Of a stretch of 64,000 nt of DNA, positions 7,988 through 34,309 are shown piece by piece. Position numbers and translations under genes: made by a program. The notes below the pieces were generated by a model. The model was not told the origin of the DNA. It made no database searches and saw only the letters and a program-made list of their open reading frames with translations. The stretch comes from Bacteroidota bacterium (lineage in GTDB: Bacteria; Bacteroidota; Bacteroidia; Flavobacteriales; Flavobacteriaceae): assembly GCA_023434025.1 (NCBI GenBank), contig JAEYTL010000045.1:1892-65891 (forward strand), given 5' to 3'. Each line of letters starts with the position of its first letter. Positions within the stretch are counted from its first letter, which is position 1.

Positions 7988-8040
7988 TTGCCACAGTTTA
8001 TGGTTGAAAAACGGTTTCTGCACCGGATTTCTTTTCAGCA

Positions 8041-8084
8041 GTATCTTTTTGTGGCAACCCAAACTGGTTGCCACAAAAAGATAC
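8041..8084. terminator. 18-bp perfect hairpin between convergent genes (bidirectional terminator candidate)
   Basis: GTATCTTTTTGTGGCAAC (8041-8058), loop CCAAACTG, GTTGCCACAAAAAGATAC (8067-8084). It lies between ltaE (+) and ybaB (-). Confidence 0.6.
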
Positions 8085-8145
8085 GAAAAGGGTTGACTAA
8101 AGAACCTGTACATTCCCGGCTATAAACCTTCTTTGACAAATAGTT

Positions 8146-8472
8146 TTATCGGCCAAACATATCCATTCCGGGAATGTTTGGCATGCCTTCTTTGGCTACG
8201 GCAGCCAATTCAGTTTCGTTCACGTCGGTTGCTTTGGCAATTGCCTTGTTCATAACCAAAATTAAATAATCCTCCAATTGTTCTTTATCTTCCAGTAAAA
8301 CCGGATCAATTTCGATAGATTTTACGGTGCGATTAGCGGTTAAAGTTACTTTTAAAAGCCCGTCATTGCTCTGTTCATCAATTAAAACAGTATCTAAACG
8401 TTTCTTGGTATCTTCTATTTTTTGTTGGGTTTCTTTTAATTTACCCATCATTCCCATCAGGTCTCCAAACAT
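8146..8472 (-). CDS. ybaB: YbaB/EbfC family nucleoid-associated protein
   Basis: 108 aa. [26 protein letters not shown] ... [20 protein letters not shown] is the conserved YbaB pattern. Confidence 0.9.
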
Positions 8473-8541
8473 GTTGATAATTTTTATAATTTGTAAGTTA
8501 CAAATGTAGTATATTGCATAGTTTTGATTAACTATTTTTTT

Positions 8542-10674: not shown

Positions 10675-10686
10675 AAATTTTTTTTA

Positions 10687-10694
10687 TAAATTTG
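10687..10694 (+). promoter_or_regulatory. candidate -7 promoter box (TAAATTTG)
   Basis: Matches TAnnTTTG, 57 nt upstream of the ATG at 10751. Confidence 0.35.
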
Positions 10695-10750
10695 CAAGGT
10701 TTTAAGGTTTCCAAAAACAAGAGAAGTTTGCCTTGACTAACATATTTTTT

Positions 10751-11791
10751 ATGAAAGAACAGATAAAAGCTTACAATAGTGTATTGGATTTAATTGGGAA
10801 TACACCGTTAATTAAACTCAATAGGATTACAGAGAATTTAGAAGGTAATTTTTATGCAAAGGTTGAATCGTTCAACCCCGGTCATTCTACCAAAGACAGA
10901 ATTGCTCTCTATATTATTGAAGAAGCTGAAAGGCAAGGAATACTTTCTCCGGGAGACACTATTATTGAAACCACTTCCGGTAACACGGGCTTTAGTCTGG
11001 CGATGGTGAGCATTATCAAAGGTTATAACTGTATCTTAGCCGTGAGTTCCAAATCATCACGTGACAAAATTGATATGTTGCGAAGCATGGGAGCCAAGGT
11101 CTATGTTTGTCCCGCTCACGTATCAGCTGACGATGAACGTTCTTATTATAACGTAGCCAAACGCTTGCACGAAGAAACAAAAGGTTCCATTTATATCAAT
11201 CAATATTTTAACCAGCTTAATATTGATGCCCACTACAAAACTACCGGACCCGAAATCTGGGAACAGACCAATGGACAGATTACGCACTTGATTGCCTGTA
11301 GCGGAACGGGTGGTACTTTGTCCGGAGCCGCAAAATTTTTAAAAGAAAAAAACCCGAATATCAGAATCTTAGGCGTTGATGCTTATGGTTCGGTATTGAA
11401 AAAATACCACGAAACCAAGGAATTTGACAGCGAAGAGATTTACCCGTATCGTATAGAAGGGTTGGGTAAAAACCTGATCCCCACCGCTACTGATTTTGAT
11501 GTGATTGATAAATTTATCAAAGTGACAGACGAAGAAAGTGCTCATACTACCCGCGAAATAGCTGTTAAAGAAGGTTTGTTTGTTGGTTATACTTCCGGTG
11601 CAGTAGTACAGGCTATCCGACAATTTGCGGAAGAAGGTGAGTTTACGGCTGATTCAAACGTAATCGCTATTTTTCCGGATCACGGATCACGCTATATGAG
11701 CAAGGTATTCAGCGATGACTGGATGAATGAACAAGGGTTCTTTGACAGTGTGAATCTGGAAGAAGTTCAGAAGATAGAATTTATAAAATAA
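10751..11791 (+). CDS. PLP-dependent cysteine synthase/cystathionine beta-synthase family enzyme
   Basis: PLP-lysine motif [17 protein letters not shown] loop and GTGGTLSG glycine loop. There is no C-terminal CBS pair. I moved the start to the ATG at 10751. Confidence 0.85.
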
Positions 11792-13754: not shown

Positions 13755-14837
13755 TTACTTTTTATAAAACGGCATTTTTACCACTTTTGCGGCTACTTTA
13801 TTGTTTCTGATCTGAATAAAGATTTCAGAATCAACGGCAGAAAATGCGGTTTTTACATAGCCCATACCAATTCCTTTTCCCAAAGACGGAGCCATGGTCC
13901 CGGAAGTTACGATGCCAATGTTGTTTCCGTCGGCATCAACAATTTCATAATCATGACGCGGGATACCTCTTTCCAACAGTTCAAAACCTACCAACTTTCT
14001 GGAAACACCCTCTTCTTTTTGTTTTTTCAGGTTTGCGGAATTAACGAAATCCTTGGTGAATTTTGTGATCCATCCCAATCCGGCTTCAATAGGCGAAGTA
14101 GTATCGTTAATGTCGTTTCCGTACAGGCAAAAGCCCATCTCCAGACGCAATGTATCGCGGGCAGCTAAGCCGATTGGTTTGATACCGAATGAGGCTCCGG
14201 CTTCAAATACCTTGTTCCACACTTGTTCTACTTCTGAATTTTTACAATAGATTTCAAATCCGCCGGAGCCGGTGTAGCCCGTAGCCGAAATAATGACATG
14301 TTCAATTCCGGCAAAATCAGCCACCTCAAAATGATAATACTTGATTGCCGATAAATCAACAGAGGTTAACGGCTGCATAGCCTCAACTGCTTTAGGTCCC
14401 TGAATGGCCAGAAGTGAATAATCATCAGAAAGGTTCTTCATTTCTACTCCCAAATCATTGTATGATGAGATCCAGTTCCAGTCTTTTTCAATATTGGAAG
14501 CATTTACAACCAACAAGTACTGCTCGTCTTTGATTTTATAAATAATTAAATCATCCACAATACCGCCTTCATTGTTGGGTAAACAGGAATATTGTGCCTT
14601 GCCTGCCGTTAACACAGCAGCGTCATTTGAGGTTACTTTTTGAATGAGGGCAAGGGCATCAGGGCCGGTTAATAAAAATTCGCCCATGTGCGACACGTCA
14701 AAAACGCCTACGCCATTGCGAACCGTTTCATGTTCTGCGGTTACTCCTTCATACTGTACCGGCATATTGTATCCGGCAAAGGGAACCATTTTTGCTCCCA
14801 GACTTTCGTGAATGTGCGATAACGCTGTATTTTTCAT
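13755..14837 (-). CDS. gcvT: glycine cleavage system aminomethyltransferase (T protein)
   Basis: 360 aa. [40 protein letters not shown] and [10 protein letters not shown] are classical GcvT motifs. Confidence 0.93.
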
Positions 14838-15053
14838 TGGTATGCTGTGTGAAATTTGAAGTGGCTAATTTATTAAAAATAATGCGATTTTTGATTTAAA
14901 AAAAGCGTATAAATTAGCTATTCGTTAAAAAAACATTCCATAACTCATTATTCTTGTATTAATCGAATTTAGGCTAAAAAATATTTTTAATCACAATCCA
15001 AAAACCTATATTTACTTTTTAATATTAATATTGATTACGATTTAACCGATTGC

Positions 15054-16193
15054 ATGAAGCCAGCTGAAAATACAATACCACAACAGCCAGAAAAAGATAT
15101 CATTGAACCTCAGCTTAATTTACTTTTAACGACCGATGAAGAGGATGACAGACCCGTGTATATTGCAGGGAATTTTAACAACTGGGTTACGCAGGACAGA
15201 GCCTTTCAGATGGAAAAAGTAGGAAAAGGGCTGTATCATTTTAAATTTCCAGCCGATTTTAGCTATCCTGATGAATTGTTGTATAAATTTACAAGAGGCG
15301 ATTGGAGTGAAGTAGAGATTGACAAATACGGAAACAGAACCGAAAACAGGTCATGCCGTCAGCACAATGGCGTGCGGAAAGAGCATGTGGCAAAGTGGCG
15401 ACGGAACTGGTTGCCGTTTAAACCCAATTTTTTGCCTAAAGTACATTTGATTTCCAGTGAGTTTGAAATCCCGCAGCTGAACAAAACCCGCAAGGTATGG
15501 GCTTTGCTGCCGCATGATTATGAAACCTCTGCCGAACGTTATCCGGTGATGTACTTACAGGATGCCCAAAACCTGTTTAATGAGCAGGCAAAATACGGCA
15601 ATTGGGAAATAGATAAAAAGCTGGCCGTTATGGCAGAGTACAATATTGGTAAAATCATCGTCATTGCTGTTGAGCATGCGGATAATGAACGTATATTGGA
15701 ATACAATGTGGGCAATACAGTTTTAGGAGCCGGACAAGGCAAGAAATACATCCGGTTTCTGACCGATACCTTAAAACCTTTTGTGGACGAAAATTTCCGG
15801 ACAAAACCGGATCGTGAATTTACAGGTATCGGAGGCAGTTCGATGGGCGGACTGGTCAGTATTTTTAGTGGGATTATGTATCCGGAAGTATTTGGTAAAC
15901 TGATGGTGTTTTCCCCTTCGCTTTGGGTAGTTCCCAAGATCAAACTGTCGTTTTTAGATATGGAAGAACCGCAGAACACCCGGATTTACCTGTATGCCGG
16001 TGGAGATGAAAGTGTTACGATGATTGATCATGTAAAGAATTTCAGAAAACGATTGCTTAAAAAAGATGCACTGAATGATAAAATGAAAGTACGGCTGAGT
16101 ATTAATGAACAAGGCAAACACAATGAAATATATTGGAGCGACGAATTTCCGAAAGCGATAGAATGGTTGTTTTTCAGTTCAAAAGAAGATTAG
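15054..16193 (+). CDS. esterase-D-like alpha/beta hydrolase with an N-terminal CBM48/AMPK-beta-like carbohydrate-binding module
   Basis: The N-terminus (VYIAGNFNNWV ... LYKFTRGDWSEVE) resembles glycogen-binding modules. The C-terminus (YPVMYLQDAQNLF ... GIGGSSMGGL) matches the putative esterase family. Confidence 0.72.
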   Translation: MKPAENTIPQQPEKDIIEPQLNLLLTTDEEDDRPVYIAGNFNNWVTQDRAFQMEKVGKGLYHFKFPADFSYPDELLYKFTRGDWSEVEIDKYGNRTENRSCRQHNGVRKEHVAKWRRNWLPFKPNFLPKVHLISSEFEIPQLNKTRKVWALLPHDYETSAERYPVMYLQDAQNLFNEQAKYGNWEIDKKLAVMAEYNIGKIIVIAVEHADNERILEYNVGNTVLGAGQGKKYIRFLTDTLKPFVDENFRTKPDREFTGIGGSSMGGLVSIFSGIMYPEVFGKLMVFSPSLWVVPKIKLSFLDMEEPQNTRIYLYAGGDESVTMIDHVKNFRKRLLKKDALNDKMKVRLSINEQGKHNEIYWSDEFPKAIEWLFFSSKED

Positions 16194-16201
16194 AAAAATA
16201 T

Positions 16202-17614
16202 ATGATAATTAATTATTTACAAAAGGTTACTTCAACAGAAAATTTAGTATTGGTTCCGGTAACAGAAACGGATGAAACCGTCCAGTTTTTATCCATAGCG
16301 GTTTCCAATGCTGTATTTTCCGGAAAAAAAGAAACGACCTATGCGATAGAAAAAGTAGGAGTTGTTTATTTATTCATCGGATTGGGAAAAACACCTGATT
16401 TCAGCAGTGTTAAAAAAATATTCAGACGTATTGCCCATCAGCAAATGAACTTTTTTAAAAAGGAAACGTCGTTATGCCTGCCTGATTTTTTTACGGATGA
16501 ATGGGTTACCGCTGCTGTAAACGGATTAACCTTAGGAACGTATCAGGTGGGGCATTATAAAAAAGAAAAGAAAGTACATCCGTTGCTGGATGAAGCAAAC
16601 TGTTTAAATATTATTTCAGCAAGATCAATTGAAAAAGCGGTTGAACGCGGTTTAAAAATAGCCTCAGCCCAACTGGAAACATTTCTTCTGGTCGATTTGC
16701 CGCCTAATACCGTTACGCCAAAGTATCTGGCTGACTGGGCTGTTGAAAAGGGAAAGAAATATGGCTTTACAGTAGAAGTTTTTGACCGGAAAAAGGCAAA
16801 GGAGATGGGTTTGGATGCGTTTGTAGCCGTTGGAAAAGGTAGTGCCAATGAACCGCAGTTTATCGTGATGGATTACCATCCGGAAAAGGCTCAGAAGCAT
16901 ATTGGTCTGGTCGGAAAAGGTATTACGTTTGATACGGGTGGACTTAACATTAAAACAGCCGGAATGGTACACATGAAATGTGATATGGCCGGAGGCGGTG
17001 CTGTTTTGGGAGCCATGCAGTTAATCGCCGATTTAAAATTGCCTTATCGTGTAACGGCTGTTGTGCCTGCCTGTGAAAATTCGGTTGATGCCCATTCGTT
17101 TTTACCCAGTGATGTAATCGGCAGCTACAGTGGTCATTCGATTGAAATTATTGACACGGATGCCGAAGGACGGTTGATTCTGGCTGATGGTCTGTCCTAT
17201 CTGATTAAAAACTATCAACCGGAAACCATCATTGATATTGCTACTTTGACAGGCAGCAGTGTGGCAACTTTTGGGTATGAATGCGGAGCATTATTTACGA
17301 ACAACGAATCACTTTCTAAAAAGATTCAGGAGACGGGGATGAAGATCGGGGAGCGGTTATGGCCTTTGCCTTTGTGGGACAGCTATAAAACAGATATAGA
17401 GAGTGAAATAGCCGATGTAAAAAATTTTTCAGGCAAACCCGTAGCCGGAGCAATATCTGCGGCAAAGTTCTTAGAGTTTTTTACGGAAAATCACCCTGCC
17501 TGGGCACACTTGGATATTGCCGGAGTCTCATTTACGGACGATGAATTTGCCAAAACCAAGCATGCCTCAGCCTTTGGGGTGCATTTGATTACTAATTTTA
17601 TCGAAAACCAATAA
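16202..17614 (+). CDS. pepA: M17 leucyl aminopeptidase
   Basis: VGKGITFDTGGLNIKT, MKCDMAGGGAV, NTDAEGRL-type motif (IIDTDAEGRLILAD) and ATLTGS. I set the start at the ATG at 16202, after the upstream stop at 16193, not the overlapping tracked start at 16133. Confidence 0.88.
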   Translation: MIINYLQKVTSTENLVLVPVTETDETVQFLSIAVSNAVFSGKKETTYAIEKVGVVYLFIGLGKTPDFSSVKKIFRRIAHQQMNFFKKETSLCLPDFFTDEWVTAAVNGLTLGTYQVGHYKKEKKVHPLLDEANCLNIISARSIEKAVERGLKIASAQLETFLLVDLPPNTVTPKYLADWAVEKGKKYGFTVEVFDRKKAKEMGLDAFVAVGKGSANEPQFIVMDYHPEKAQKHIGLVGKGITFDTGGLNIKTAGMVHMKCDMAGGGAVLGAMQLIADLKLPYRVTAVVPACENSVDAHSFLPSDVIGSYSGHSIEIIDTDAEGRLILADGLSYLIKNYQPETIIDIATLTGSSVATFGYECGALFTNNESLSKKIQETGMKIGERLWPLPLWDSYKTDIESEIADVKNFSGKPVAGAISAAKFLEFFTENHPAWAHLDIAGVSFTDDEFAKTKHASAFGVHLITNFIENQ

Positions 17615-17617
17615 TTT

Positions 17618-18835
17618 ATGGAGAATAATACCAAAACCTTCATTTGTATTTCCAATTATTTTAAAGGAAACGACTTTCTGGTTAATATGAAGCAGTTAGG
17701 CAATAGAGTTTTTTTGATTACTTCGGAGAAACTGCGGGATAAACCCTGGGCTTTTGATGCGATTGATGAAATCTATTACATGCCCGGCCAGGATATAGAC
17801 TGGGATCTGGATATGCTTCTGCACGGGGTAGCCGGATTGATGCGTAAAGAAAAGATCGATGCCATTGTAGCTTTGGATGATTTTGACGTGGAAAAAGCCA
17901 CATTTTTACGAGAAAACCTCAGAATGGACGGAATGGGACAAACCACCGGCAGGTATTTCAGGGACAAGCTGGCCATGCGTGTCAAAGCTCAGTCTGAAGG
18001 AGTTCCGGTACCGGCCTTCAGTGCCTTGTTTAATGATGATTACATCAATCATTTTGCCGATACCGTTTCGCCTCCCTGGGTTTTAAAACCACGTTCAGAA
18101 GCTTCTGCTTCCGGAATCATGAAAGTGCATTCTAAAGAAGAACTATGGCATAAAATCCATGAGTTGGGAGACAACCGCATTAAGTACCTGGTGGAGCAAT
18201 TTAAACCCGGAGCAGTTTATCATTGTGACGGATTGAATTTTAACGGAAAAGTTTTATTCAGCATAACATCGCAGTACCTGGCTACACCGATGGAAATTTC
18301 ACAAGGTGGCGGAATTTTCAGAAGTGCCAATATTCCGTATAATTCTGCTGATGACAAAGCGATTAAGAAAGTGAACGAGCAGGTGATGAAAGCGTTTGGC
18401 ATGAAACACGGAGCCACACACACCGAATTTATCAAATGCAATGAAGACGGAAAGATTTACTTTTTAGAAACCTCTTCCCGTGTGGGCGGTGCTCACCTGG
18501 CGGAAATGGTGGAAGCCGCTTCCGGAATTAATCTGTGGGGCGGATGGGCAAAAATTGAAGATGCACTGGTGAGGGGAGAAGTATACAACGTTCCTTTACA
18601 AAAAAAACAATTTGCCGGTATTGTGTTGACGTTGTCTAAATTTGAGCATCCGGATCTGAGTGGGTTTAACGATAGTGAAGTGTGTTTCCGTGTCCCGCTG
18701 GAATACCATGCCGGATTGATTGTAAAATCAGAAAAACATGAGCGGGTTAGGGAATTATTAGATGATTATGCAGAACGGCTGGTAAAGGATTTTGCTACGG
18801 TTGCACAGCAAGAGAAGGTAAAAAAGTTGCATTAA
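17618..18835 (+). CDS. ATP-grasp domain ligase (unknown substrate)
   Basis: 405 aa, starting 4 nt after the pepA stop. ATP-grasp pattern: PWVLKPRSEASASGI (K-loop), LVEQF, GATHTEF, YFLETSSRVGGAH. Confidence 0.78.
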   Translation: MENNTKTFICISNYFKGNDFLVNMKQLGNRVFLITSEKLRDKPWAFDAIDEIYYMPGQDIDWDLDMLLHGVAGLMRKEKIDAIVALDDFDVEKATFLRENLRMDGMGQTTGRYFRDKLAMRVKAQSEGVPVPAFSALFNDDYINHFADTVSPPWVLKPRSEASASGIMKVHSKEELWHKIHELGDNRIKYLVEQFKPGAVYHCDGLNFNGKVLFSITSQYLATPMEISQGGGIFRSANIPYNSADDKAIKKVNEQVMKAFGMKHGATHTEFIKCNEDGKIYFLETSSRVGGAHLAEMVEAASGINLWGGWAKIEDALVRGEVYNVPLQKKQFAGIVLTLSKFEHPDLSGFNDSEVCFRVPLEYHAGLIVKSEKHERVRELLDDYAERLVKDFATVAQQEKVKKLH

Positions 18836-18853
18836 CATATACTATTTTTATTT

Positions 18854-18908
18854 ACCATATAAGTCATATAAGTTTTTATTGTTTTTAAACTTATATGACT
18901 TATATGGT
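18854..18908. repeat. 22-bp perfect inverted repeat built from a duplicated 9-mer (CATATAAGT x2 / ACTTATATG x2)
   Basis: ACCATATAAGTCATATAAGTTT (18854-18875), about 11-nt loop, AAACTTATATGACTTATATGGT (18887-18908). There is no clear T-run after it. Confidence 0.7.
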
Positions 18909-18922
18909 TTAAAATATTTGAT

Positions 18923-19471
18923 TTGAAGAAATATAATTCATATAACTTCCACAAACACACCTTTTGTCTTTGGACAGAAATTTCTCAAACGGATTTTGAG
19001 TTACAGAAACCCCAGTTCAAAAGTAAATCGGGCAGTGAATATTTTTTTACAGAAGAAGGCGTTTATCGCATTTCTAACCATTGGGGACGGGTTGCCAATT
19101 GCCGTTGGCGGTTGTTACCGTTGGCCGACTATAAAAGCCAATATACCAAAATAGGTTTTGCTCAATGGACCGGTTTTTATCCGAATAACGAAACCGCCAA
19201 TTTATTCTTTATTCAAGTGGACTTTGAACAGAAAACAGTTGATTTTTTTCATAAAGAGATGCCGTTTTATGATGGAAAGGCTACTTTGCGAAATGCCTCG
19301 GAAACTGCCAAAACAATAAAAAGGATTAAACAAGTTTTAAATGAAGAGAACTGGGCAAAGTATCTTGAGCATGTAGATTTGGATAGTTTACGGAGAGAAG
19401 TGGTTGAAAAAATTATAAATTCGGAACTAAGTTTTAATGAAATTAAAAGAAAATACGGTTATATTTTTTAA
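18923..19471 (+). CDS. hypothetical protein
   Basis: 182-aa ORF with a TTG start and no recognisable family. It fills an otherwise non-coding gap between two convergent operons. Confidence 0.5.
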   Translation: MKKYNSYNFHKHTFCLWTEISQTDFELQKPQFKSKSGSEYFFTEEGVYRISNHWGRVANCRWRLLPLADYKSQYTKIGFAQWTGFYPNNETANLFFIQVDFEQKTVDFFHKEMPFYDGKATLRNASETAKTIKRIKQVLNEENWAKYLEHVDLDSLRREVVEKIINSELSFNEIKRKYGYIF

Positions 19472-19563
19472 CATTAAGTAGTTAAGAATGATTAAGGTCT
19501 TTCATTAAGACTAAAAACATAGTGAAATTATCTTAACGTCTTAAAGGTTTAAAAATATAAATA

Positions 19564-20781
19564 CTATCTCTCAAACATTCCCACCGTTCCACCAACCCAA
19601 TCTTTATCTTTATTGAATTTCACACCAATCATTTCACCACGGCTCAGTCGGACTAAATTGGTTACCGGAATGGGAGCAGGGGCATTTTTAGGCCAGACAC
19701 ATAAAATCCGGACTTCTGTTTTTACTTTGCCGTCCGGTGATTGAATGACGGGCAGGTAGTTTACTTTTTTCTGTAGAATGTATAAGTCTTTTTCAGTAAC
19801 AGCTTCGATGTCTTCTTTTTTAACGTGGAAGATGACACCGCTTCCGGAGAAGGAAAACAAGGGTTTGAGAACGTAATTTTCTAAATCGGCCGGAATTTCG
19901 TTTAAATCGCTTAATAAGGAGGTTTCAATAAAATAATTACCTTTTAAATATGGCAAAATAAATTTACTGATGCGGAAAAACCAATTCGGATGCCCGGCCC
20001 ATTCTACGTCTAAATCGGCAGAAAAATCAAAGTTGAGCTGCAGATCGGTACGCAAATCCAGTTCGTCAAAAATAACCCGGTTATAAATGCGTTTTACTTC
20101 AGTTTCAACGCCTTTATTGTTGGTATAAAACAGTTTTCTTCCTTTTTGAATTAACTCTGTCACACAAACTACCGGAATACCAATATCGCGTTTACAATAG
20201 TAAAAATCAATCTTGGTATTTTGCTTTTCGGGTTCAATTTCCAGCAGAATAACATTTTCTTTCGGATGATTATTACAGATTACGTCTTCGATCAACTTCA
20301 GATATGACTCGTTATCCAATCCGTTCAGGTAAGGCGTCAATTTGTCTAGAAAAGGGTAGAGGGCCGCAAACTTCTGATACAAATGATTCTGAAAATTAAA
20401 CAGCGAGGGGAAGCCTTGGACTTCTATTAATTTCGGTATAATTTTTCCATCTTCTTCGCAAATCCCGAAATCAATGGCTAAAAATGTGGTGTGAATATCT
20501 TCGTTAGGAACTTTTCTGTTTAGTTCTAATGCTTTGTTTGTTAGTTCTTTGAATGTGCTTTGCTGAATGAATTTTATAACTTCATCGCAACCTTCCAACA
20601 ATTGATTTTTCAGCTCGTTTGGAATAAAAAAAGGCGTTTCTCCAATTCTGAACGTTGGTTTATAATCAAAATCGGCGGTAATCGAATTGATTAACCGGTT
20701 ATATTTTTCGGGAGAGAATTCCTCGTTAAATTGTTTTCGGAAAGCTGGATTCATAAGAGCATTATTTTTTAAAAAAGGCAC
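19564..20781 (-). CDS. hypothetical protein, possible divergent ATP-grasp/GspS-like amidoligase
   Basis: 405 aa. YVLKPLFSFSGSGVIF resembles the ATP-grasp Lys-loop and LIEVQGFPSL resembles the Mg/ATP E-x-N/Q strand. The order of these motifs is atypical. The gene call is solid but the function is tentative. Confidence 0.5.
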   Translation of the reverse strand: MPFLKNNALMNPAFRKQFNEEFSPEKYNRLINSITADFDYKPTFRIGETPFFIPNELKNQLLEGCDEVIKFIQQSTFKELTNKALELNRKVPNEDIHTTFLAIDFGICEEDGKIIPKLIEVQGFPSLFNFQNHLYQKFAALYPFLDKLTPYLNGLDNESYLKLIEDVICNNHPKENVILLEIEPEKQNTKIDFYYCKRDIGIPVVCVTELIQKGRKLFYTNNKGVETEVKRIYNRVIFDELDLRTDLQLNFDFSADLDVEWAGHPNWFFRISKFILPYLKGNYFIETSLLSDLNEIPADLENYVLKPLFSFSGSGVIFHVKKEDIEAVTEKDLYILQKKVNYLPVIQSPDGKVKTEVRILCVWPKNAPAPIPVTNLVRLSRGEMIGVKFNKDKDWVGGTVGMFER

Positions 20782-20826
20782 AAAAGAAAATACCAGTGTG
20801 CCTTTTAGAAATTTAAAATTTGAAAC

Positions 20827-21654
20827 TTAGTTAGAGAGTATTTTTTTATGCTTCAGCAAATCATTGATGGCGATACGGAGAAAATTCGGAATGATGGTTT
20901 CATTTGTTTTGTAGATTTTCTCTTCATCCACCAAATCTTCCAGCATTTTCAGGAACTTCGGACGACCTTTCATCGTGATTATCTTTTCTTTAAAGGTTTT
21001 GTTTTTCATGTGTGCCAGGAAACTCAACGGGTCGGCCTCCGGATGAAATTGTAAGCCGACAAATTCTTTTGAAAAACGAATTCCCATAATCGCCCGTTCA
21101 TACTGCACGTGATCACGGATTTTTTCTAACGCAATAATTTGTGCCCCCATTTTTTTGAGGTTCTTCAGTTTGGGTTGAACGACCTGAAAATCACGGCTGT
21201 CTATGGTGTAAAACGGATTTTCCAATCCTTCAAACAAGGGATCGGTTAAGCCTTCGTTAACTTTATGGGTTGTCATCACACCGAAAGAAGTATCTTTCCG
21301 CTTATTGATTTCTGCCAGACCAAAATGTTTACAGGCCATCTGAAAGGAATGGCAAATGAATAACACATGTTTCTTCATTTCATTTTCACGGTTCCAGTTC
21401 CACAGGGAATCAATTAAATTGAAATAATTGACATCCCATTTCCCGTCACCTTCCAGCGGATTTCCGGGACCACCGGTTGAAATAAAAATATCAAACTTTT
21501 TGATGTCCGGAAATTCATTTTTTCCGCGGACATCAAAAACCTGAAAGGAAACCATTTGATTAAACCGGTTGATGATGTCAAAAATACAACGCATTCCCTG
21601 ATTGGGCTCGCCGTCATACATATCTAAAACCGCTATTTTTATTTGTCCGTTCAT
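20827..21654 (-). CDS. class I glutamine amidotransferase-like protein
   Basis: 275 aa. Nucleophile elbow VLFICHSFQM (Cys) and LQFHPE (His-Glu) form the triad-type GATase1 signature. Confidence 0.85.
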   Translation of the reverse strand: MNGQIKIAVLDMYDGEPNQGMRCIFDIINRFNQMVSFQVFDVRGKNEFPDIKKFDIFISTGGPGNPLEGDGKWDVNYFNLIDSLWNWNRENEMKKHVLFICHSFQMACKHFGLAEINKRKDTSFGVMTTHKVNEGLTDPLFEGLENPFYTIDSRDFQVVQPKLKNLKKMGAQIIALEKIRDHVQYERAIMGIRFSKEFVGLQFHPEADPLSFLAHMKNKTFKEKIITMKGRPKFLKMLEDLVDEEKIYKTNETIIPNFLRIAINDLLKHKKILSN

Positions 21655-21942
21655 AGTAACTGTTTAATAATGCAAAGATAACTTTTTTGATTTACTTGGC
21701 TGATAAGGTTTTATTGTTGTTTATTCAATAGAAATTAACAATTTTAATTAAAAACGAATCACTCGGATTAATCATTTTTACATAATGGAATTGACCTGCA
21801 ATCGGAGCAGATAGCGTTCAGCAGTCATTTTTACCCACCAGATGAGCGTTTGCTATCGCTTGTATTTTCTTTTGACTTCGTCATCTTTCAACATAACAAA
21901 AATGTTCCTAACTCCGAATTTCTGATTTCTAAACTCTAACTT

Positions 21943-23055
21943 CTAAATTCCCTTTGTAAACTCACTCGTAATAAAATCAACAACTTTGGTCAGATCCTGT
22001 GTTTTTTCAAAAACCGCCAGTTGTTTGGCTGCTCCTGTTCCTTCACGCAGAATGGTGTGTACGTAATTAATTTCGTCACGGCTTCCTAATTCATCCACCA
22101 CATCGTCTATAAATTCCAATAATTCAAGAATCAGTTCTTTGGTAGGTACTTCTTTTTGCAAACCAAAATCGATCATATTTCCCTGTACACCGTAACGGGC
22201 GGCACGGAATTTATTTTCTTTAATCAAGGCCAACCGGTACACATTAAAACTGATGTTTGCCGTATTTAATTTATACAGCTTTGCCACAATAGCCTGGATA
22301 ATGGCCACAATACAAATGGTTTCATCTACCGTTAAGCTCATGTCGCAGATGCGGAATTCGATCGTGTTATAGAAAGGGTGCAACCGCAGATCCCACCATA
22401 TTTTCTTCGGATTATCGATGCAATTGGTTTTAACCAGTGTTTCCAGAAAATTATCATATGACTGTACGGAATCAAAATATTCCGGCAGACCTGTTCGCGG
22501 GAACTTATCAAAAACTTTGGTTCTGAATGATTTGTAACCGGTATTTCTTCCTTCCCAAAAAGGGGAGTTGGTTGACAGTGAAAAAATATGTGGCAAAAAA
22601 TAGCACGCCTGATTGATTAATTGCAGTCCCACTTCCCGGCTTTCGATTCCCACATGGCAGTGCATACCAAAAATAAGATTGGAACGGGCGGCATCCTGTA
22701 ATTCGTTGACAATGTTATGGTAACGGGGATCGTCCGTAATCGGTTGATCCTGCCATTTGGAAAAAGGATGTGTTCCGGCAGCCCCGACAACCAGTCCTTG
22801 ATTAGCCGCTAATTCAACAATTTTTTTGCGTAAAAAAGTGATTTCCTCCCGTGCTTCTTTTACGTTTTTACAGATATTGGTGCCTACTTCTACCACGGAT
22901 TGATGCATTTCGGCTTTCACCTGTTCCTGTAAAATGATTTTGGCACCATCTACAATTTTAGACATGTGCGAACGCAAGTCTCTTGTTTCCGGATCAATGA
23001 TCAGGTATTCTTCTTCTACGCCCAGTGTAAAAACAGGCAATGCTTTCTTCATCAT
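21943..23055 (-). CDS. carboxylate-amine ligase, glutamate-cysteine ligase family 2 (YbdK-like)
   Basis: 370 aa. FTLGVEEEYLIIDP, AAGTHPF, GMHCHVG and WWDLRLHP are GCS2/YbdK hallmarks. Confidence 0.88.
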   Translation of the reverse strand: MMKKALPVFTLGVEEEYLIIDPETRDLRSHMSKIVDGAKIILQEQVKAEMHQSVVEVGTNICKNVKEAREEITFLRKKIVELAANQGLVVGAAGTHPFSKWQDQPITDDPRYHNIVNELQDAARSNLIFGMHCHVGIESREVGLQLINQACYFLPHIFSLSTNSPFWEGRNTGYKSFRTKVFDKFPRTGLPEYFDSVQSYDNFLETLVKTNCIDNPKKIWWDLRLHPFYNTIEFRICDMSLTVDETICIVAIIQAIVAKLYKLNTANISFNVYRLALIKENKFRAARYGVQGNMIDFGLQKEVPTKELILELLEFIDDVVDELGSRDEINYVHTILREGTGAAKQLAVFEKTQDLTKVVDFITSEFTKGI

Positions 23056-23087
23056 TTTTATTAAGCTATATTTTCAAAAGAATCATA

Positions 23088-24044
23088 TTAAAATCGTTTG
23101 GCATCGTTAACAGAACCTTTCATAAAAGTTCCCCAGGTAAGGTTCATCTGGCCGTCTTTGTGTTTTTTAGCGTATTCAATGGCCATTTTAGCAGCTTCTT
23201 CTACGACCCATTCAAAATTTTCTTTTCCGACAGAGGTCAGTTCTGCATCAGGAGCCGGATTGCCAAAATCGATGGCATACGGAATCCCGTCACGTACGGC
23301 AAATTCAACCGTGTTAAAATCATAACCTAATCCTTTGCATAAACGAAGGGTATAATCTTTTACGGTTGCCAGAAGTTTTTTATCTGCCGGCGGACCGTCA
23401 ACCACATAGCGTAAATGATGCGGATTACGCGGTTCATAGGGCATGATGCGAACCGCTTTACCTCCTAAACAATATACGCGGAAGTACTGATCAAATACAA
23501 TTTCTTCCTGTAACAGCATCACTAATTGTCCGGTTTCACGGTGAATATCCCAAAACATATCACGGTTTTCCAGGCGGTAAACGTTTTTCCATCCGCCACC
23601 GGCATAGGGTTTCATGTAGGCGGGGAATTTTACATACTCAAAAATAGCTTCCCAATCCATCGGGTATTTAAGGTTCCGGAATGATTTACTGGTAGTATCG
23701 GTCGGATGTTCTGCCGAAGGAAGAATTACCGTGTTCGGAAGGGGAACACCCAGCACATCGGCCAGACAGTTGTTGAAAAATTTGTCATCGGCACTCCACC
23801 AGAACGGATTGTTAATGACGGCTGTTCCGGTTAAAGCAGCATTTTTTAAATAAGCCCTGTAAAACGGCACATCTTGTGAAATACGGTCGATAATGACAGC
23901 ATATTCGGTGGCTTTGTTCTGAATAACCTTGTCAATAGATACGGCTTCGGCTATAATGCCTTTTTCGTTTTTAGCGTTAACACGATCAATAAAGGCTTGC
24001 GGGAAGGTATCTTCCATACCAAATAAAATTCCAATTTTTTTCAT
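23088..24044 (-). CDS. ATP-grasp domain protein (RimK/glutathione-synthetase-like fold)
   Basis: 318 aa. AYMKPYAGGGWKNVY (Lys-loop), LLQEEI, and EFAVRDGIPYAIDFGNPAPD (E-x-N-type strand). Confidence 0.78.
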   Translation of the reverse strand: MKKIGILFGMEDTFPQAFIDRVNAKNEKGIIAEAVSIDKVIQNKATEYAVIIDRISQDVPFYRAYLKNAALTGTAVINNPFWWSADDKFFNNCLADVLGVPLPNTVILPSAEHPTDTTSKSFRNLKYPMDWEAIFEYVKFPAYMKPYAGGGWKNVYRLENRDMFWDIHRETGQLVMLLQEEIVFDQYFRVYCLGGKAVRIMPYEPRNPHHLRYVVDGPPADKKLLATVKDYTLRLCKGLGYDFNTVEFAVRDGIPYAIDFGNPAPDAELTSVGKENFEWVVEEAAKMAIEYAKKHKDGQMNLTWGTFMKGSVNDAKRF

Positions 24045-24066
24045 AGTTCAGGATGCGTTATTTTGT

Positions 24067-24780
24067 TTAAAAAAATTTAATTCTGGATAAATAATGCGGA
24101 AACATTTCCCGCCAGACCGGCCAGTCATGTTCCCGGTCTTGTCTTACATCCAGCCAATGCGGGATATCCCGATGGGCTAAAATCCGGCTCAGCTTGAGGT
24201 TTGCATCAAAGCAGATGTCCCAGTTAGATGTCCCTAACACGATGTCCATATTCCATAATTCATGATCATTCAATCCGTGTAAATAATCTTCCGGACTGTT
24301 GTAAAACACATTGTCGTCATGAAAACCGTCCATAAAACTTTTAATACTGAAGGCTCCGCTCATCGAAAACAGGTGACTTACATAACCCGGATGGCGAAAA
24401 GCGAAATTGGCGGCATGATAGCCACCGAAACTGCACCCGGCTACGGCAACTTTACCGGAATAGGTGTTGTTTTTTACCCGTTCTACAATTTCATGGCAAA
24501 TCATTTTATCATACCAGACATGGTTTTGGATCCGGTGTACGGGGTGAATTTTTTTATTATAAAAACTGTCCTTGTCAATACTGTCCGGACAAAAGATTTG
24601 AATCAGACCTTGTTCAAGATACCACCGGGCAGAAGCAATCAATCCCTGGTCTTTATTTTCATGATAGCTTCCCATGGAAGTGGGGAATAAAATAACGGGA
24701 TAACCGGCATGACCAAAAACCAACATCTGAATTTCTCTGCCGAGGTTAGGGGAGTGCCATTTAAAGTACTCTTCTTTCAT
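24067..24780 (-). CDS. esterase-D-like alpha/beta hydrolase
   Basis: 237 aa. VAVAGCSFGGYHA nucleophile elbow (GxSxG variant) and a late His region (DREHDWPVW), similar to the putative esterase family. Confidence 0.78.
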   Translation of the reverse strand: MKEEYFKWHSPNLGREIQMLVFGHAGYPVILFPTSMGSYHENKDQGLIASARWYLEQGLIQIFCPDSIDKDSFYNKKIHPVHRIQNHVWYDKMICHEIVERVKNNTYSGKVAVAGCSFGGYHAANFAFRHPGYVSHLFSMSGAFSIKSFMDGFHDDNVFYNSPEDYLHGLNDHELWNMDIVLGTSNWDICFDANLKLSRILAHRDIPHWLDVRQDREHDWPVWREMFPHYLSRIKFF

Positions 24781-25087
24781 AGTATTCGTTTTAACAATAA
24801 TAATGAAAATATATTATAAATAGTGATAAAATATTGTATTTTGATTATTTTTGTCATATAGTCTTTCACAATTTGGATTGCCTGTAAAAAACTCAAAAAA
24901 AGCCCGGATTTTAAGGATTCGATTTAAGTATTTGCAAAAAAATGTATTCTTTTTAACAAGCTAAAACCATCCTTGTGTTTGAAATCGTCGTTCATTTTAC
25001 TGAAAAGCACAGCACTTTTAAACAAAAGTGTGAAAAGCCTTAATTAAAAGTTGTAAATTTAAGGTTGAAATACGAATACTTCCCGAG

Positions 25088-25855
25088 ATGAAAAATATGC
25101 TTTACTTAGTTGTAACCTGCTTGTTGACAGGATGTGTGGTTAAGAAGGATCTGCTTCAAAAAGCTACTCCCGAAGCCCCGCTATTAAAATCAAAACCAGA
25201 AGGCTATTTTAAAGCAGTTGGTACGGAACCATTTTGGTATTTGGAAATTTCTGAGGAAAGGATACGTTTTCAGGGCACAGAGCCGGAAGATGAGTTCACG
25301 GCAACCCATGTGGAACCTGTTTTGGCCATGGATGCTGACGTGAAAGCATACAGGATGAATTCAGATAACGGAGAAATGATTATTACAATTTACAGGCAAA
25401 ACTGTTCGGATCAGATGTCTGATCAATTATACGGCTACCACGTTGATCTTGAGGTAAGAAAGAGGACTCAGAAGGAAAAGGTGCATTATTCCGGTTGCGG
25501 AAATTATACAGCAGATTACCGTTTGTTTGATCTATGGCTTTTGGAAGAAGTGGAAGGCAGGAAAGTCAGTGCTGAAAATTTTGCCGGAGAAATACCGTTG
25601 TTGGAAATAAACGCATCCGAGAAAAAATTTAGCGGCTATGGCGGATGCAACCGCATTTCAGGAACCCTTTTTCAGGAGAGAGAACGTTTGCGGTTTACCG
25701 ACATTATATCAACAAAAAGGGCTTGCGGTTCCGAGAATATGGAAAATATATTTCTGAAAGCTTTGCAAAGCTCTACGGGCTATAAAATCAAACATAACCG
25801 TCTGTATTTGATTAACCCCGACGGTATCAAAGTAATTCTTAAAAAAGTGGATTAA
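25088..25855 (+). CDS. lipoprotein with a C-terminal META (HslJ-like) domain
   Basis: Lipobox LLTGC. The C-terminal half (FSGYGGCNRISGTLF ... LRFTDIISTKRACG ... YKIKHNRLYL) matches the META domain. Confidence 0.72.
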   Translation: MKNMLYLVVTCLLTGCVVKKDLLQKATPEAPLLKSKPEGYFKAVGTEPFWYLEISEERIRFQGTEPEDEFTATHVEPVLAMDADVKAYRMNSDNGEMIITIYRQNCSDQMSDQLYGYHVDLEVRKRTQKEKVHYSGCGNYTADYRLFDLWLLEEVEGRKVSAENFAGEIPLLEINASEKKFSGYGGCNRISGTLFQERERLRFTDIISTKRACGSENMENIFLKALQSSTGYKIKHNRLYLINPDGIKVILKKVD

Positions 25856-26256
25856 GAGGCTTGTTGTGAGTCAAACAGCATAATGTTGCTTTTTAACCGT
25901 TCAATCAGCATATTCATCATGCGTTTATTCAGGTTGGAAGAGTTTTTAATGTACTCCGCATACTCATTGATGGTAAATAAACCGATGACCATTCCTTTTA
26001 AAGAATTTCTGAATTTAATGTCTTTTTGAATGGAGTTCTCAATAAACAGTAATTTTTTTTCGGTGGAATAGGTATAAAAATCATTCTTGTATTTTGAGAT
26101 ATAATTTTTAAAAACATCTACAAATAAGTCGTTCTGTAGTTTCAGTATAGGGCGGATGGTTATGTTTTGAAACCGTTCTTCGGCAGAAGATTGTTCTGTT
26201 ACGATGCCCAATGCTTCTCCTCTGTTTTCGATAATATAAAAATCCCGGGTTGTCAT
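25852..26256 (-). CDS. hypothetical protein
   Basis: 134-aa ORF with no competing frame and a 4-nt overlap with the convergent gene's stop. No family recognised. Confidence 0.55.
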   Translation of the reverse strand: MTTRDFYIIENRGEALGIVTEQSSAEERFQNITIRPILKLQNDLFVDVFKNYISKYKNDFYTYSTEKKLLFIENSIQKDIKFRNSLKGMVIGLFTINEYAEYIKNSSNLNKRMMNMLIERLKSNIMLFDSQQAS

Positions 26257-34236: not shown

Positions 34237-34309
34237 AACCCCTCCCAAATTTACATCTGAATCTCAAACCTAACCAAAATAGAATATATATGTGTTCTAC
34301 TAATGCAAA

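Follow-up and report, generated by a model that had tools for sequence, protein, structure and literature searches.

A candidate pathway for a glutathione-like peptide in an amide-ligase gene cluster conserved across Bacteroidota

Gene content and layout

In the Flavobacterium genome considered here, eight enzyme genes lie in two facing operons and encode four ATP-dependent amide-bond ligases, one glutamine-amidotransferase-type enzyme and three hydrolases. This raises the question of what these enzymes would make, or break down, together. A sequence-only reading of the window (the whole stretch of DNA analysed, 64,000 nucleotides) had proposed the synthesis and turnover of a small, possibly thiol-like, peptide. 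Open reading frames, Pfam, profile searches and Foldseek place all eight genes at the positions and in the families claimed by that reading and, as it also stated, neither the ORF list nor Pfam reveals an NRPS, a transporter or a precursor ORF within the cluster. Searches of the cluster with PADLOC and Rfam returned no defence match and no element, respectively. The features are:

15054-16193, plus strand: PF00756 esterase, 379 aa (Pfam E=2.6e-27)
16202-17614, plus strand: M17 leucyl aminopeptidase, 470 aa (PF00883 E=2e-109)
17618-18835, plus strand: AG405, L-amino-acid-ligase-type ATP-grasp protein, 405 aa (ATP-grasp_4)
18854-18908, plus strand: 22-bp perfect hairpin, likely terminator of the plus operon (folding energy against shuffles)
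18923-19471, plus strand: hypothetical gene, 182 aa
19564-20754, minus strand: circularly permuted ATP-grasp ligase, 396 aa, last gene of the minus operon (fold model)
20827-21654, minus strand: class I GATase-fold protein, 275 aa (PF00117)
21673-21680, minus strand: candidate Bacteroidetes-type -7 promoter motif, TATCTTTG, of the form TAnnTTTG (motif scan)
21943-23055, minus strand: GCS2/YbdK-family carboxylate-amine ligase, 370 aa (PF04107 E=3e-59)
23088-24044, minus strand: AG318, divergent ATP-grasp ligase, 318 aa (Ddl profile match, Foldseek)
24067-24780, minus strand: abH237, alpha/beta serine hydrolase, 237 aa, first gene of the minus operon (weak PF00756)

In the plus operon, the esterase comes first and carries an N-terminal domain of ~130 aa. 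The "CBM" label once attached to it derives from an AGNFNNW motif only and is not upheld, as the N-terminal 135 aa match no Pfam family. For the catalytic part alone, the closest PDB structures are CE1/feruloyl-esterase-like and IroE-like hydrolases; the enzyme looks most like CE1 carbohydrate esterases, a point against a peptide product. The M17 gene, opened mechanically at TTG 16133, has an ATG at 16202 that agrees with a 469-aa orthologue. Its product carries the DTDAEGRL motif and scores 400 bits with the best NCBIfam LAP model, under the 468 cut-off. Three bases separate its stop from the start of AG405, which exceeds the ATP-grasp_4 cut-off (37.5 against 27 bits) and has L-amino acid ligases 4wd3 (E=1.3e-17) and 3vot (1.5e-7) as its PDB matches; these similarities assign AG405 to the L-amino-acid ligase family. 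The hairpin that follows (dG -29.6 kcal/mol, z=-9.3; 0 of 200 shuffles equally stable) is likely the operon's terminator. The 182-aa gene had been counted within the plus operon, but falls outside the unit because it lies behind this hairpin and, in the locus comparison, is restricted to the nearest Flavobacterium relatives.

The minus operon contains the genes attributed to it, but may not form a single transcription unit in this strain. Here, GCS2 and the GATase are separated by 288 nt, with TATCTTTG positioned 26 nt before the GATase ATG, where it may act as a promoter and so split the "operon" into two units. Across genomes, this spacer has a median of 51 nt (range -4 to 1622). A hairpin with a T-run behind it also separates the GATase from the last ligase in this strain, and both this and the promoter-like spacer count against the peptide reading. 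That last ligase, described earlier as a 405-aa ATP-grasp-like protein, retains its fold assignment but not its length: the ORF spans 19564-20781, and orthologues begin at Met10, giving 396 aa.

Conservation across Bacteroidota

Lack of synteny in related genomes had been named beforehand as grounds for refutation; the genes are in fact syntenic across Bacteroidota families. The comparison covers 81 loci, with the 396-aa ligase as anchor (identity 47-91%), from Flavobacteriaceae, Cyclobacteriaceae, Saprospiraceae, Hymenobacteraceae, Spirosomataceae, Cryomorphaceae and others. Upstream of the anchor on the same strand are the GATase (74 loci), AG318 (65), GCS2 (59) and abH237 (57), and in locus L085 the five genes are packed with 4-nt overlaps. 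The flanking gcvT, yebC, META and ompA are retained only in near relatives. Freshwater, soil and marine taxa all carry the cluster, which is best read as a vertically inherited Bacteroidota gene system.

The genes fall into three modules: A (abH237, AG318 and GCS2), B (the GATase and the 396-aa ligase, the invariant core) and C (esterase, M17 and AG405). Module C lies within 10 kb of the ligase operon in several independent lineages, in rearranged forms, and at least 9 of 41 distant loci have it. Taken singly, esterases clustering with the plus-operon gene accompany the ligase operon in 33 of the 81 loci, some divergent and upstream of abH237; M17 is convergent to it in 22; and AG405 occurs in 25, among them loci of Saprospiraceae, Gelidibacter and Cryomorphaceae, where identity is 44-59%. 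Most Cyclobacteriaceae loci have no module C within 10 kb, GCS2 was not found adjoining the ligase genes in Saprospiraceae loci, and in Sediminibacterium the GATase and the 396-aa ligase are accompanied only by an M42/M20 peptidase. The modules are separable in these groups, and therefore no one fixed pathway operates everywhere, a further point against the peptide reading.

Module A and the question of a protein substrate

The GCS2 ligase scores 525 bits with NF010039 (cut-off 371) and matches E. coli YbdK (1r8g) at E=6e-52, whereas all glutamate-cysteine ligase equivalogs in NCBIfam fall under their cut-offs. This similarity is that of a YbdK-family enzyme. Identity is 59-66% in distant families. 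The abH237 hydrolase narrowly exceeds the PF00756 cut-off (24.2 against 22 bits), and its catalytic residues are intact, with G-x-S117-x-G, D188 and H218 invariant or nearly so among 23 orthologues.

AG318, as the window encodes it, matches no Pfam family; a profile matches Ddl 3r23 (E=3e-3). Its AF2 model (pLDDT 75.6) finds Ddl, LysX/ArgX, RimK and PsnB/MdnC by Foldseek at TM 0.54-0.65, the best scores being RimK 0.65/0.72 and LysX/ArgX 0.64/0.73. R2K_2 is matched by 19 of 28 orthologues, all under the gathering score (best 23.5 against 26.2 bits). By profile and model, AG318 is a divergent ATP-grasp protein with a RimK/LysX/Ddl-like fold, weakly R2K-like. It is 63-74% identical between classes, with K145 and K153 invariant; for comparison, the housekeeping protein YebC is 73% identical in locus L048. 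Such conservation favours a core physiological role over a sporadic secondary metabolite.

The likeness to RimK, LysX and, weakly, R2K points toward protein substrates and against the peptide reading. RimK modifies ribosomal protein bS6, and LysX/ArgX modify LysW. By analogy, AG318 and possibly other ligases would attach amino acids to a conserved protein, at its C-terminus or on a side chain, and the GATase, esterases and M17 would trim or remove this tag. The R2K clade is predicted to tag proteins (PMC4431377), and the invariant lysines, the housekeeping-like conservation and the lack of a transporter for a small product are consistent with such a role. However, AG318 reaches just 26 bits with the RimK family model TIGR00768 (cut-off 143), the 81 loci share no conserved neighbouring gene for a small carrier or target, and characterised relatives of the GCS2/YbdK, GS/GspS-like and L-amino-acid ligases use small molecules. 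Protein tagging is the strongest of the alternatives, though an unlikely one. Nor do the ligases as a group map to RimK/S6 modification or cyanophycin synthetase (TIGR02068, 15 bits against 850), since all fall under cut-offs, and no ligase reaches the threshold of GshB, BacD, DdaF or any other named equivalog in NCBIfam.

The GATase and its partner ligase

The 396-aa ligase matches nothing in Pfam or NCBIfam. Its family profile matches YgiC 7uk8 (E=3e-4) and 3n6x (1.8e-3), and its AF2 model (pLDDT 89.6, pTM 0.90) retrieves 34 PDB entries by Foldseek at E<=4e-6, all of them glutathione/homoglutathione synthetases, 3n6x, YgiC/YjfC, GspS, trypanothione synthetase or Cp1B. The modelled fold belongs to the eukaryotic-GS/GspS/YgiC group, and invariant residues include K297, E347, R349 and R369. 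Known members of this group convert the carboxylate of a peptide or acid to an acyl-phosphate, which is then coupled to an amine. YgiC and YjfC have been described as peptidylpolyamine synthetases (PMC12568646).

The GATase (PF00117, 37.6 bits against 22.8) has a conserved C-terminal helical extension and an intact Cys-His-Glu triad, with Cys101, His204 and Glu206 invariant in the orthologue alignment. In the 74 loci noted above its gene immediately precedes that of the ligase; the median distance is 15 nt, and in 15 of these loci the two genes overlap by 1-4 nt. Judged from gene order, the GATase is an obligate, translationally coupled partner of the 396-aa ligase, and the pair would form the core of the system. 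Its earlier description as gamma-glutamyl-hydrolase-type is less favoured: as the GATase pairs most tightly with the GS-like ligase, glutamine-dependent amidation or a synthetase/amidase couple is indicated.

The same observation bears on a catabolic or salvage role of the kind known from gamma-glutamylation in the Puu (PuuA/PuuD) and Ipu pathways. The ligases would gamma-glutamylate or conjugate amines, polyamines or peptides taken up from outside, and the GATase-type hydrolase, together with the esterases and aminopeptidases, would set them free later. A GS-fold GCS2 alongside a GATase-fold enzyme with a Cys-His-Glu triad recalls the pairing of PuuA and PuuD, peptidases recur near the core (M17, M1 in some Flavobacterium loci, M42/M20 in Sediminibacterium), and 6 loci have a class III aminotransferase downstream. 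Yet it is the GS-like ligase, not GCS2, to which the GATase is coupled, and GATase orthologues match PF00117 (29 of 29) and never Peptidase_C26, the PuuD family (0 of 29). Oxidase or dehydrogenase steps are not conserved in the cluster, and four ATP-consuming ligases would be excessive for catabolism. This role is somewhat less probable than protein tagging.

An amidation step would also suit an amidated di- or tripeptide that protects against stress or acts as a compatible solute. An ATP-grasp ligase and an amidotransferase make N-acetylglutaminylglutamine amide, and by this analogy the tight GATase-ligase coupling and the co-occurrence of ATP-grasp ligases, glutamine amidotransferase and peptidase could be accommodated. 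This is less probable again, as Pfam and NCBIfam detect neither an N-acetyltransferase nor a class II AsnO-type amidotransferase, the cluster's habitats include freshwater and soil as well as the sea, and the present analysis gives no link to osmotic regulation. Accidental adjacency of unrelated housekeeping genes, for which this strain's promoter-like spacer and the many loci lacking module C would speak, is very improbable given order and orientation held in 57-74 of 81 loci from several families while true flanking genes are not, gene overlaps in many genomes and the recurrence of module C; for modules A and B, the synteny analysis rejects it.

Proposed pathway

The favoured reading, at a probability of roughly 0.55, is that a vertically inherited Bacteroidota system builds and turns over a small glutathione-like peptide or pseudopeptide, using ATP and no NRPS. 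The small-peptide proposal thus stands in part: it survives the synteny and known-pathway comparisons, while its thiol option is weakened. Its "glutathione-like" flavour is strengthened because the 396-aa model matches only the GS/GspS/TryS/YgiC group and has a GCS2 neighbour. Bacteroidetes are reported to make bacillithiol or N-methyl-bacillithiol and to lack gshA-B (PMC6282198), so a thiol becomes just one product option. Every enzyme family involved is chemically broad, which counts against the peptide reading.

In this proposal, module A would make the peptide backbone, for example through a gamma-glutamyl-X bond formed by GCS2 and extension by AG318. The module B ligase would then join the carboxylate of a peptide or acid to an amine via an acyl-phosphate. 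The GATase could contribute in either of two ways. It may supply ammonia from glutamine, giving a product ending in a carboxamide; this would resemble the logic of carbamoyl-phosphate synthetase or MurT/GatD and is the chemistry needed for glutathione amide. Alternatively, it may be the cognate amidase of the ligase product, comparable in function to the CHAP amidase that is fused to GspS. Module C, where present, may serve dipeptide supply or recycling.

New here are the fold placement of the Pfam-less 396-aa ligase, its coupling to a triad-bearing GATase, and the recognition of AG318 as a divergent ATP-grasp enzyme with housekeeping-like conservation. For the Bacteroidota that carry these genes, they are best read as encoding an uncharacterised pathway with its own turnover, whose candidate product is a glutathione-like peptide or peptide-amide.

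Organization of the facing operons

The feature at 15054-24780 consists of two convergent operons, defined by their open reading frames and family matches:

15054-18835, plus strand: a PF00756 esterase, an M17 aminopeptidase and a 405-aa ATP-grasp protein of the L-amino-acid ligase (LAL) type, AG405
24780-19564, minus strand: the 237-aa alpha/beta hydrolase abH237, the 318-aa ATP-grasp protein AG318, a GCS2 protein, a GATase and a 396-aa ligase

The eight enzymes, with their positions and families, stand as the sequence-only reading described them; its single minus-strand transcript may in this strain be two, and two further attributions, discussed where they arise, did not hold.

In the plus operon, three bases lie between the stop of the M17 gene and the start of AG405. 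Sequence comparison indicates that the M17 gene most likely starts at ATG 16202, giving 470 aa where the orthologue in F. azooxidireducens has 469 aa. Directly 3' of AG405, a 22-bp perfect inverted repeat (18854-18908, plus strand; dG -29.6 kcal/mol, z -9.3) probably terminates the operon. Rfam searches of 14500-25500 gave chance-level matches only, and the 'MIR7127' match is this same hairpin. The hairpin cuts off a 182-aa gene (18923-19471, plus strand; weak HTH match only) that had been read as the last member of the operon. Among the 81 loci compared (the best 80 of at least 585, plus one), this gene is found only in the closest Flavobacterium relatives. As F. azooxidireducens holds three small genes in the slot between the operons, the slot is a variable region.

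On the minus strand, the 396-aa ligase is encoded at 19564-20754 and begins at Met10 of a 405-aa open reading frame, as in its orthologues. The longer frame has no exact match in the protein collection, which lacks this strain and in which its closest relative is 99% identical; the best matches are Flavobacterium proteins of 79-99% identity, which assigns the window to a Flavobacterium. The 288-nt spacer 5' of the GATase gene holds a Bacteroidetes-type TAnnTTTG motif, so that the minus cluster may be two transcripts in this strain. Between genomes, the spacer from GCS2 to GATase ranges from -4 to 1622 nt and contains no conserved small ORF or precursor peptide, in agreement with the earlier statement that no ribosomal precursor is evident. 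Comparison of the three upstream regions gave no common operator-like motif; scanning for sigma-70 promoters says little in Bacteroidota.

The GATase stop and the ligase Met10 are separated by a GC-rich hairpin with a T-run behind it (20773-20806, minus strand; dG -14.1, z -3.35), whereas the two genes overlap in many other genomes. The hairpin could serve this lineage alone as an attenuator or a partial terminator.

Conservation across Bacteroidota

Relatives of the 396-aa ligase, used as the anchor, were sought in one genome per GTDB species with a 15-sequence alignment as query. This gave at least 585 relatives, of which the loci of the best 80 were compared together with that of one complete Flavobacterium genome. 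Anchor identity across these 81 loci is 47-91%, and the set includes Flavobacteriaceae, Cyclobacteriaceae, Saprospiraceae, Chitinophagales, Hymenobacteraceae, Spirosomataceae, Cryomorphaceae and others.

Genes accompanying the anchor in the 81 loci (best 80 of at least 585, plus one)
GATase: 74/81, same strand and order, upstream of the anchor
318-aa ATP-grasp: 65/81, same strand and order, upstream of the anchor
GCS2: 59/81, same strand and order, upstream of the anchor
237-aa hydrolase: 57/81, same strand and order, upstream of the anchor
Esterase cluster: 33/81, within 10 kb of the anchor
LAL-type ATP-grasp (AG405): 25/81, within 10 kb of the anchor
M17: 22/81, within 10 kb of the anchor

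The sequence-only reading had staked its proposal on synteny in related genomes, and order and strand are kept in 57-74 of the 81 loci. The window's real flanks, gcvT, yebC, META and ompA, are kept only in near relatives within the same set. In the 74 loci with GATase (from the best 80 of at least 585, plus one), the median gap from GATase to ligase is 15 nt, and 15 genomes show an overlap of 1-4 nt instead; in one metagenomic locus, all five genes are packed with 4-nt overlaps. For the minus operon, chance adjacency is thereby refuted.

The plus trio is a looser partner. Its linkage extends to at least nine distant loci, in Saprospiraceae, Gelidibacter, Cryomorphaceae and unclassified Bacteroidota, some of them rearranged or with the esterase divergently upstream of the 237-aa hydrolase. 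This recurrence is far above chance placement in a genome of several Mb, making coincidence an unlikely explanation here also. The conserved unit is modular: Sediminibacterium keeps a peptidase, the GATase and the ligase alone, and in Saprospiraceae loci GCS2 is not beside the other genes. The system is vertically conserved in Bacteroidota, phylum-wide, and the two operons very probably constitute one functional system.

Several other neighbours recur around these loci. An M1 peptidase lies between the two operons in several Flavobacterium loci (L011, L015, L017, L019, L025), and an M42/M20 peptidase lies directly upstream of GATase in two Sediminibacterium loci (L082/L083, 7024-8151). Linkage of a peptidase to the core pair is thus recurrent, and the peptidase family is interchangeable. 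The M1 peptidase itself, like a class III aminotransferase, DUF4240, a methyltransferase, RibD, transhydrogenase and RecJ, is lineage-specific and was rejected as a part of the system. In 25 loci (among the best 80 of at least 585, plus one), all of a Flavobacterium-like group, the hydrolase gene is immediately preceded on its own strand by a gene for a 134-aa protein (25852-26256, minus strand) with no significant Pfam match; a META-domain gene (25088-25855, plus strand) intervenes on the opposite strand in the window and in its nearest relatives. One locus binned as Pseudanabaena (L037; CALRVY020000229.1, 3.4 kb) carries a GATase-ligase pair 65-69% identical to the Flavobacterium genes and is probably a mis-binned Bacteroidota contig, not a cyanobacterial one.

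Elsewhere in the window, the stretch 3-8 kb upstream of the cluster (6962-11791) encodes a threonine-aldolase-like PLP enzyme, an S9 prolyl oligopeptidase and a PLP enzyme of the PALP family; they match no recurrent neighbour cluster examined and are therefore not counted as system parts. At 32686-35923 (plus strand), a gene for a DUF3492 and GT4 glycosyltransferase with the architecture of PelF precedes one whose product matches PelG weakly, and the two may represent a Pel-type exopolysaccharide locus.

Enzymes of the minus operon

No Pfam or NCBIfam model matches the 396-aa ligase. Its AlphaFold2 model, built on a 69-sequence alignment (pLDDT 89.6, pTM 0.90), gave 34 Foldseek matches in the PDB (E<=4e-6, TM 0.44-0.64), all of one fold group: eukaryotic-type glutathione/homoglutathione synthetases, the circularly permuted ATP-grasp 3n6x, YgiC/YjfC, glutathionylspermidine synthetase (GspS), trypanothione synthetase and the E-64 ligase Cp1B. 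The model thus places the protein among the circularly permuted ATP-grasp enzymes of the eukaryotic glutathione synthetase (GS), GspS and YgiC group. In this group, a peptide or acid is activated at its carboxylate and then coupled to an amino acid or a polyamine. YgiC and YjfC are described as peptidylpolyamine synthetases (PMC12568646); YgiC itself is not a Gsp synthase.

At the level of sequence, the family profile matches E. coli YgiC (E=3e-4) and 3n6x weakly. PF03738 scores 11.9 bits on the window protein, below its gathering threshold of 29.3, and PF03917 has no match there; across the family, weak matches to GSP_synth occur in 20/56 members and to GSH_synth_ATP in 2/56. Judged in this way, the protein is a new sequence family within the fold group. 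It is a single domain with no fused N-terminal CHAP amidase, so it is not of the GspSA/trypanothione synthetase-amidase type. The family has at least 8000 candidates in the protein collection and at least 1137 representatives at 50% identity.

Five distant relatives (P0143, P0154, P0173, P0192 and P0127) carry signal-peptide-like, Ala-rich N-terminal extensions of 160-190 aa, and in P0127 a sodium:solute symporter (SSF) is joined on, either by true fusion or by a gene-calling error. These may represent a secreted or membrane-associated subfamily outside Bacteroidota. As the extensions of the longer relatives are not GATase fusions, they provide no Rosetta-stone evidence.

The GATase (275 aa) is predicted to be a class I glutamine amidotransferase, with PF00117 at 37.6 bits against a threshold of 22.8. 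Its Cys101-His204-Glu206 triad is invariant in 29 orthologues, all of which match PF00117 and nine of which also match the homoserine O-succinyltransferase (HTS) family; its nearest solved relatives are remote. An amidotransferase and a gamma-glutamyl-hydrolase-type enzyme had both been entertained. Peptidase_C26 (PF07722, the PuuD type) matches 0/29 orthologues at E<=0.1, and the similarities lean to an amidotransferase, not decisively. The coupling of GATase to the 396-aa ligase is genetic only, the genes being adjacent in 74/81 loci (best 80 of at least 585, plus one).

AG318 has no Pfam match in the window protein, and modelling identifies it as an ATP-grasp enzyme (pLDDT 75.6), with Foldseek matches to Ddl, LysX/ArgX, RimK and graspetide cyclases at TM 0.54-0.65. 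Its likeness to RimK is one of fold only (TM 0.65), with TIGR00768 at 26 bits against a cut-off of 143.4. Assignment to R2K would take a Pfam score above gathering together with a pair of conserved lysines around the RAGNYA strand. R2K_2 matches 19/28 orthologues at 12.7-23.5 bits against a gathering score of 26.2 and does not match the window protein, R2K_3 gives further recurrent sub-threshold matches among the orthologues, and K145 and K153 are invariant. More than 130 positions are invariant, and identity between classes is 63-74%; for comparison, one of these distant genomes has a YebC of 73% identity. The AG318 family has at least 8000 candidates in the protein collection and is, like that of the 396-aa ligase, as conserved across Bacteroidota as housekeeping genes.

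The GCS2 protein is assigned by sequence to the GCS2/YbdK carboxylate-amine ligase family (PF04107, E=3.4e-59; NF010039, 525.1 bits against a cut-off of 371; YbdK 1r8g, E=5.8e-52). It was rejected as a glutamate-cysteine ligase equivalog of the GshA/EgtA type, as no such model reaches its cut-off (best NF010043, 333.5 against 409; TIGR02048, 61.9 against 249). The hydrolase abH237 keeps Ser117, Asp188 and His218. Single-sequence PDB searches with AG318, GATase and abH237 returned nothing useful.

Enzymes of the plus operon

AG405 is predicted to belong to the L-amino acid ligase family, with ATP-grasp_4 at 37.5 bits against 27 and PDB matches to 4wd3 (E=1.3e-17) and 3vot (1.5e-7). It falls below the equivalog cut-offs for BacD (20.8 against 850) and DdaF (20.7 against 840), and is the only cluster protein matched by the cyanophycin synthetase model TIGR02068 (15.2 bits against 850). 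Pfam detects no Mur-ligase domain in the cluster. Neither of the known pathways to which the ligases might have mapped, RimK modification and cyanophycin synthesis, is therefore reached on these scores.

The M17 protein has the features expected of a leucyl aminopeptidase of that family (PF00883, E=2.2e-109; DTDAEGRL, an NTDAEGRL-type motif), and all NCBIfam equivalogs are below cut-off (best 400 against 468). The first esterase (PF00756, 379 aa) resembles CE1 and IroE-type hydrolases, with PDB matches covering residues 133-298 only. Its N-terminal 135 aa have no Pfam match at E<=0.1, and hence no match to a CBM family such as CBM48, so the "CBM" label given to this gene found no support.

A proposed peptide-ligation pathway

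Taken in aggregate, the cluster holds four intact ATP-dependent carboxylate-amine ligases of three different folds or subfamilies, at the upper end of the three or four originally counted. A triad GATase is genetically coupled to one of these ligases, three hydrolases accompany them, and the whole set is inherited as a unit. This content suggests, with a probability of about 0.55, that the system serves the synthesis or turnover of a small peptide-like metabolite.

If so, successive acyl-phosphate ligations would build a short peptide. GCS2 would form a gamma-glutamyl-type bond, AG318 and AG405 would add or provide residues, and the terminal carboxylate would be the target of the GS/GspS-like ligase. 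For the GATase, one possibility is the supply of ammonia from glutamine to yield a C-terminal amide, following the logic of ammonia delivery in carbamoyl-phosphate synthetase and MurT/GatD, which is the chemistry needed for glutathione amide. Another is a cognate amidase, taking the part that the CHAP domain plays in GspSA. Turnover of the product would fall to the esterases and M17.

More tentatively, GATase and the GS-like ligase could form an unrecognised two-subunit, glutamine-dependent peptide-carboxylate amidoligase, or a synthetase/amidase switch, which with GCS2 and the R2K-like ATP-grasp would produce a core metabolite of many Bacteroidota, a peptide or peptide-amide resembling glutathione. 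A thiol product, as had also been suggested, is unlikely, since bacillithiol or N-methyl-bacillithiol is the thiol reported from Bacteroidetes, which reportedly lack gshA-B (PMC6282198).

Among the alternatives, the ligases might tag proteins. The similarity of AG318 to RimK, LysX and R2K and the housekeeping-like conservation are consistent with this, but there is no conserved target gene and the other ligase families are small-molecule in character, which leaves tagging rather improbable. Still harder to sustain is a catabolic route by gamma-glutamylation as in Puu: redox enzymes and the C26 signature (0/29 GATase orthologues) are both missing, and the ligase to which the GATase is coupled is not the one such a route calls for. 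Direct assignments to GshB and Puu were ruled out on scores. An amidated compatible solute is a possible product with nothing specific in its favour.

Comparison with characterized systems

The preferred peptide-ligation pathway shares several features with glutathione biosynthesis. The GCS2/YbdK carboxylate-amine ligase, itself GS-fold, shares an operon with a ligase modelled like the yeast, human and plant (homo)glutathione synthetases, and the chemistry would be stepwise acyl-phosphate activation with no NRPS. An M17 peptidase and PF00756 esterases lie nearby, families that include Cys-Gly dipeptidases and S-formylglutathione hydrolase. In contrast to glutathione biosynthesis, the glutamate-cysteine ligase equivalogs are all below cut-off, the 396-aa ligase lacks PF03917 and matches the synthetases at TM 0.5-0.64 with 12-15% identity, and the cluster adds a GATase and another two ligases.

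The GspSA, trypanothione synthetase-amidase and YgiC/YjfC systems share the fold group of the 396-aa ligase, whose conserved VLKPlfsfaGxGV segment can be aligned to its YgiC counterpart, and likewise pair a synthetase with a Cys-based hydrolase. Here, however, that partner is a separate protein of the class I GATase fold, not a fused CHAP amidase, and no polyamine genes are linked. As in the two-subunit glutamine-dependent amidoligases carbamoyl-phosphate synthetase (GATase plus ATP-grasp) and MurT/GatD, a triad GATase lies immediately upstream of, and often overlaps, an ATP-dependent carboxylate activator, and its orthologues match PF00117, not peptidase C26; neither sequence could be related to CarA/CarB or MurT/GatD.

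AG405 resembles the L-amino acid ligases RizA, BL00235 and BacD in its 4wd3, 3vot and ATP-grasp_4 matches, but differs in lying below the equivalog cut-offs and in its coupling to M17 instead of an antibiotic gene cluster. AG318 approaches the R2K clade through its sub-threshold R2K_2 and R2K_3 matches; R2K families are described as sporadic and conflict-associated, whereas this system is vertically conserved and 0/9 cluster proteins match PADLOC defence models.

Mixed amidoligase neighbourhoods as a class were reportedly predicted by comparative genomics by Iyer et al. in 2009. The combination of unrelated ligase folds (ATP-grasp and COOH-NH2 ligase) with peptidases in one operon fits that description, and PMC4431377 takes linked ligases of several folds to imply successive peptide ligations. 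Literature searches yielded no later study of these operon genes, and this work found no characterised GATase coupled to a GS-fold ligase. RimK, cyanophycin synthetase, the GshA equivalogs, GspS and eukaryotic GS (as sequence families), PuuD, BacD and DdaF are all below threshold. On these comparisons, the system appears to resemble the glutathione, glutathionylspermidine and LAL pathways in its working and to be a member of no characterised one.

Significance

The cluster is rated an uncharacterised, phylum-wide multi-ligase pathway, distinguished by a GATase coupled to a GS-fold ligase, the chemistry expected for peptide C-terminal amides such as glutathione amide. Such a system is unsurprising in principle; it is well defined, widely conserved and experimentally tractable. 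The GS/GspS-like ligase and AG318 represent two enzyme families that no Pfam or NCBIfam model catches. The operon also provides a testable context for the long-unexplained YbdK/GCS2 family and, if the proposal is true, its first physiological pathway context. Identification of the product could provide new standalone amide-bond-forming enzymes for biocatalysis. It could also bring to light a new and widespread metabolite of Bacteroidota that matter in the environment and in medicine, be it a polyamine conjugate, a stress protectant or a redox buffer.
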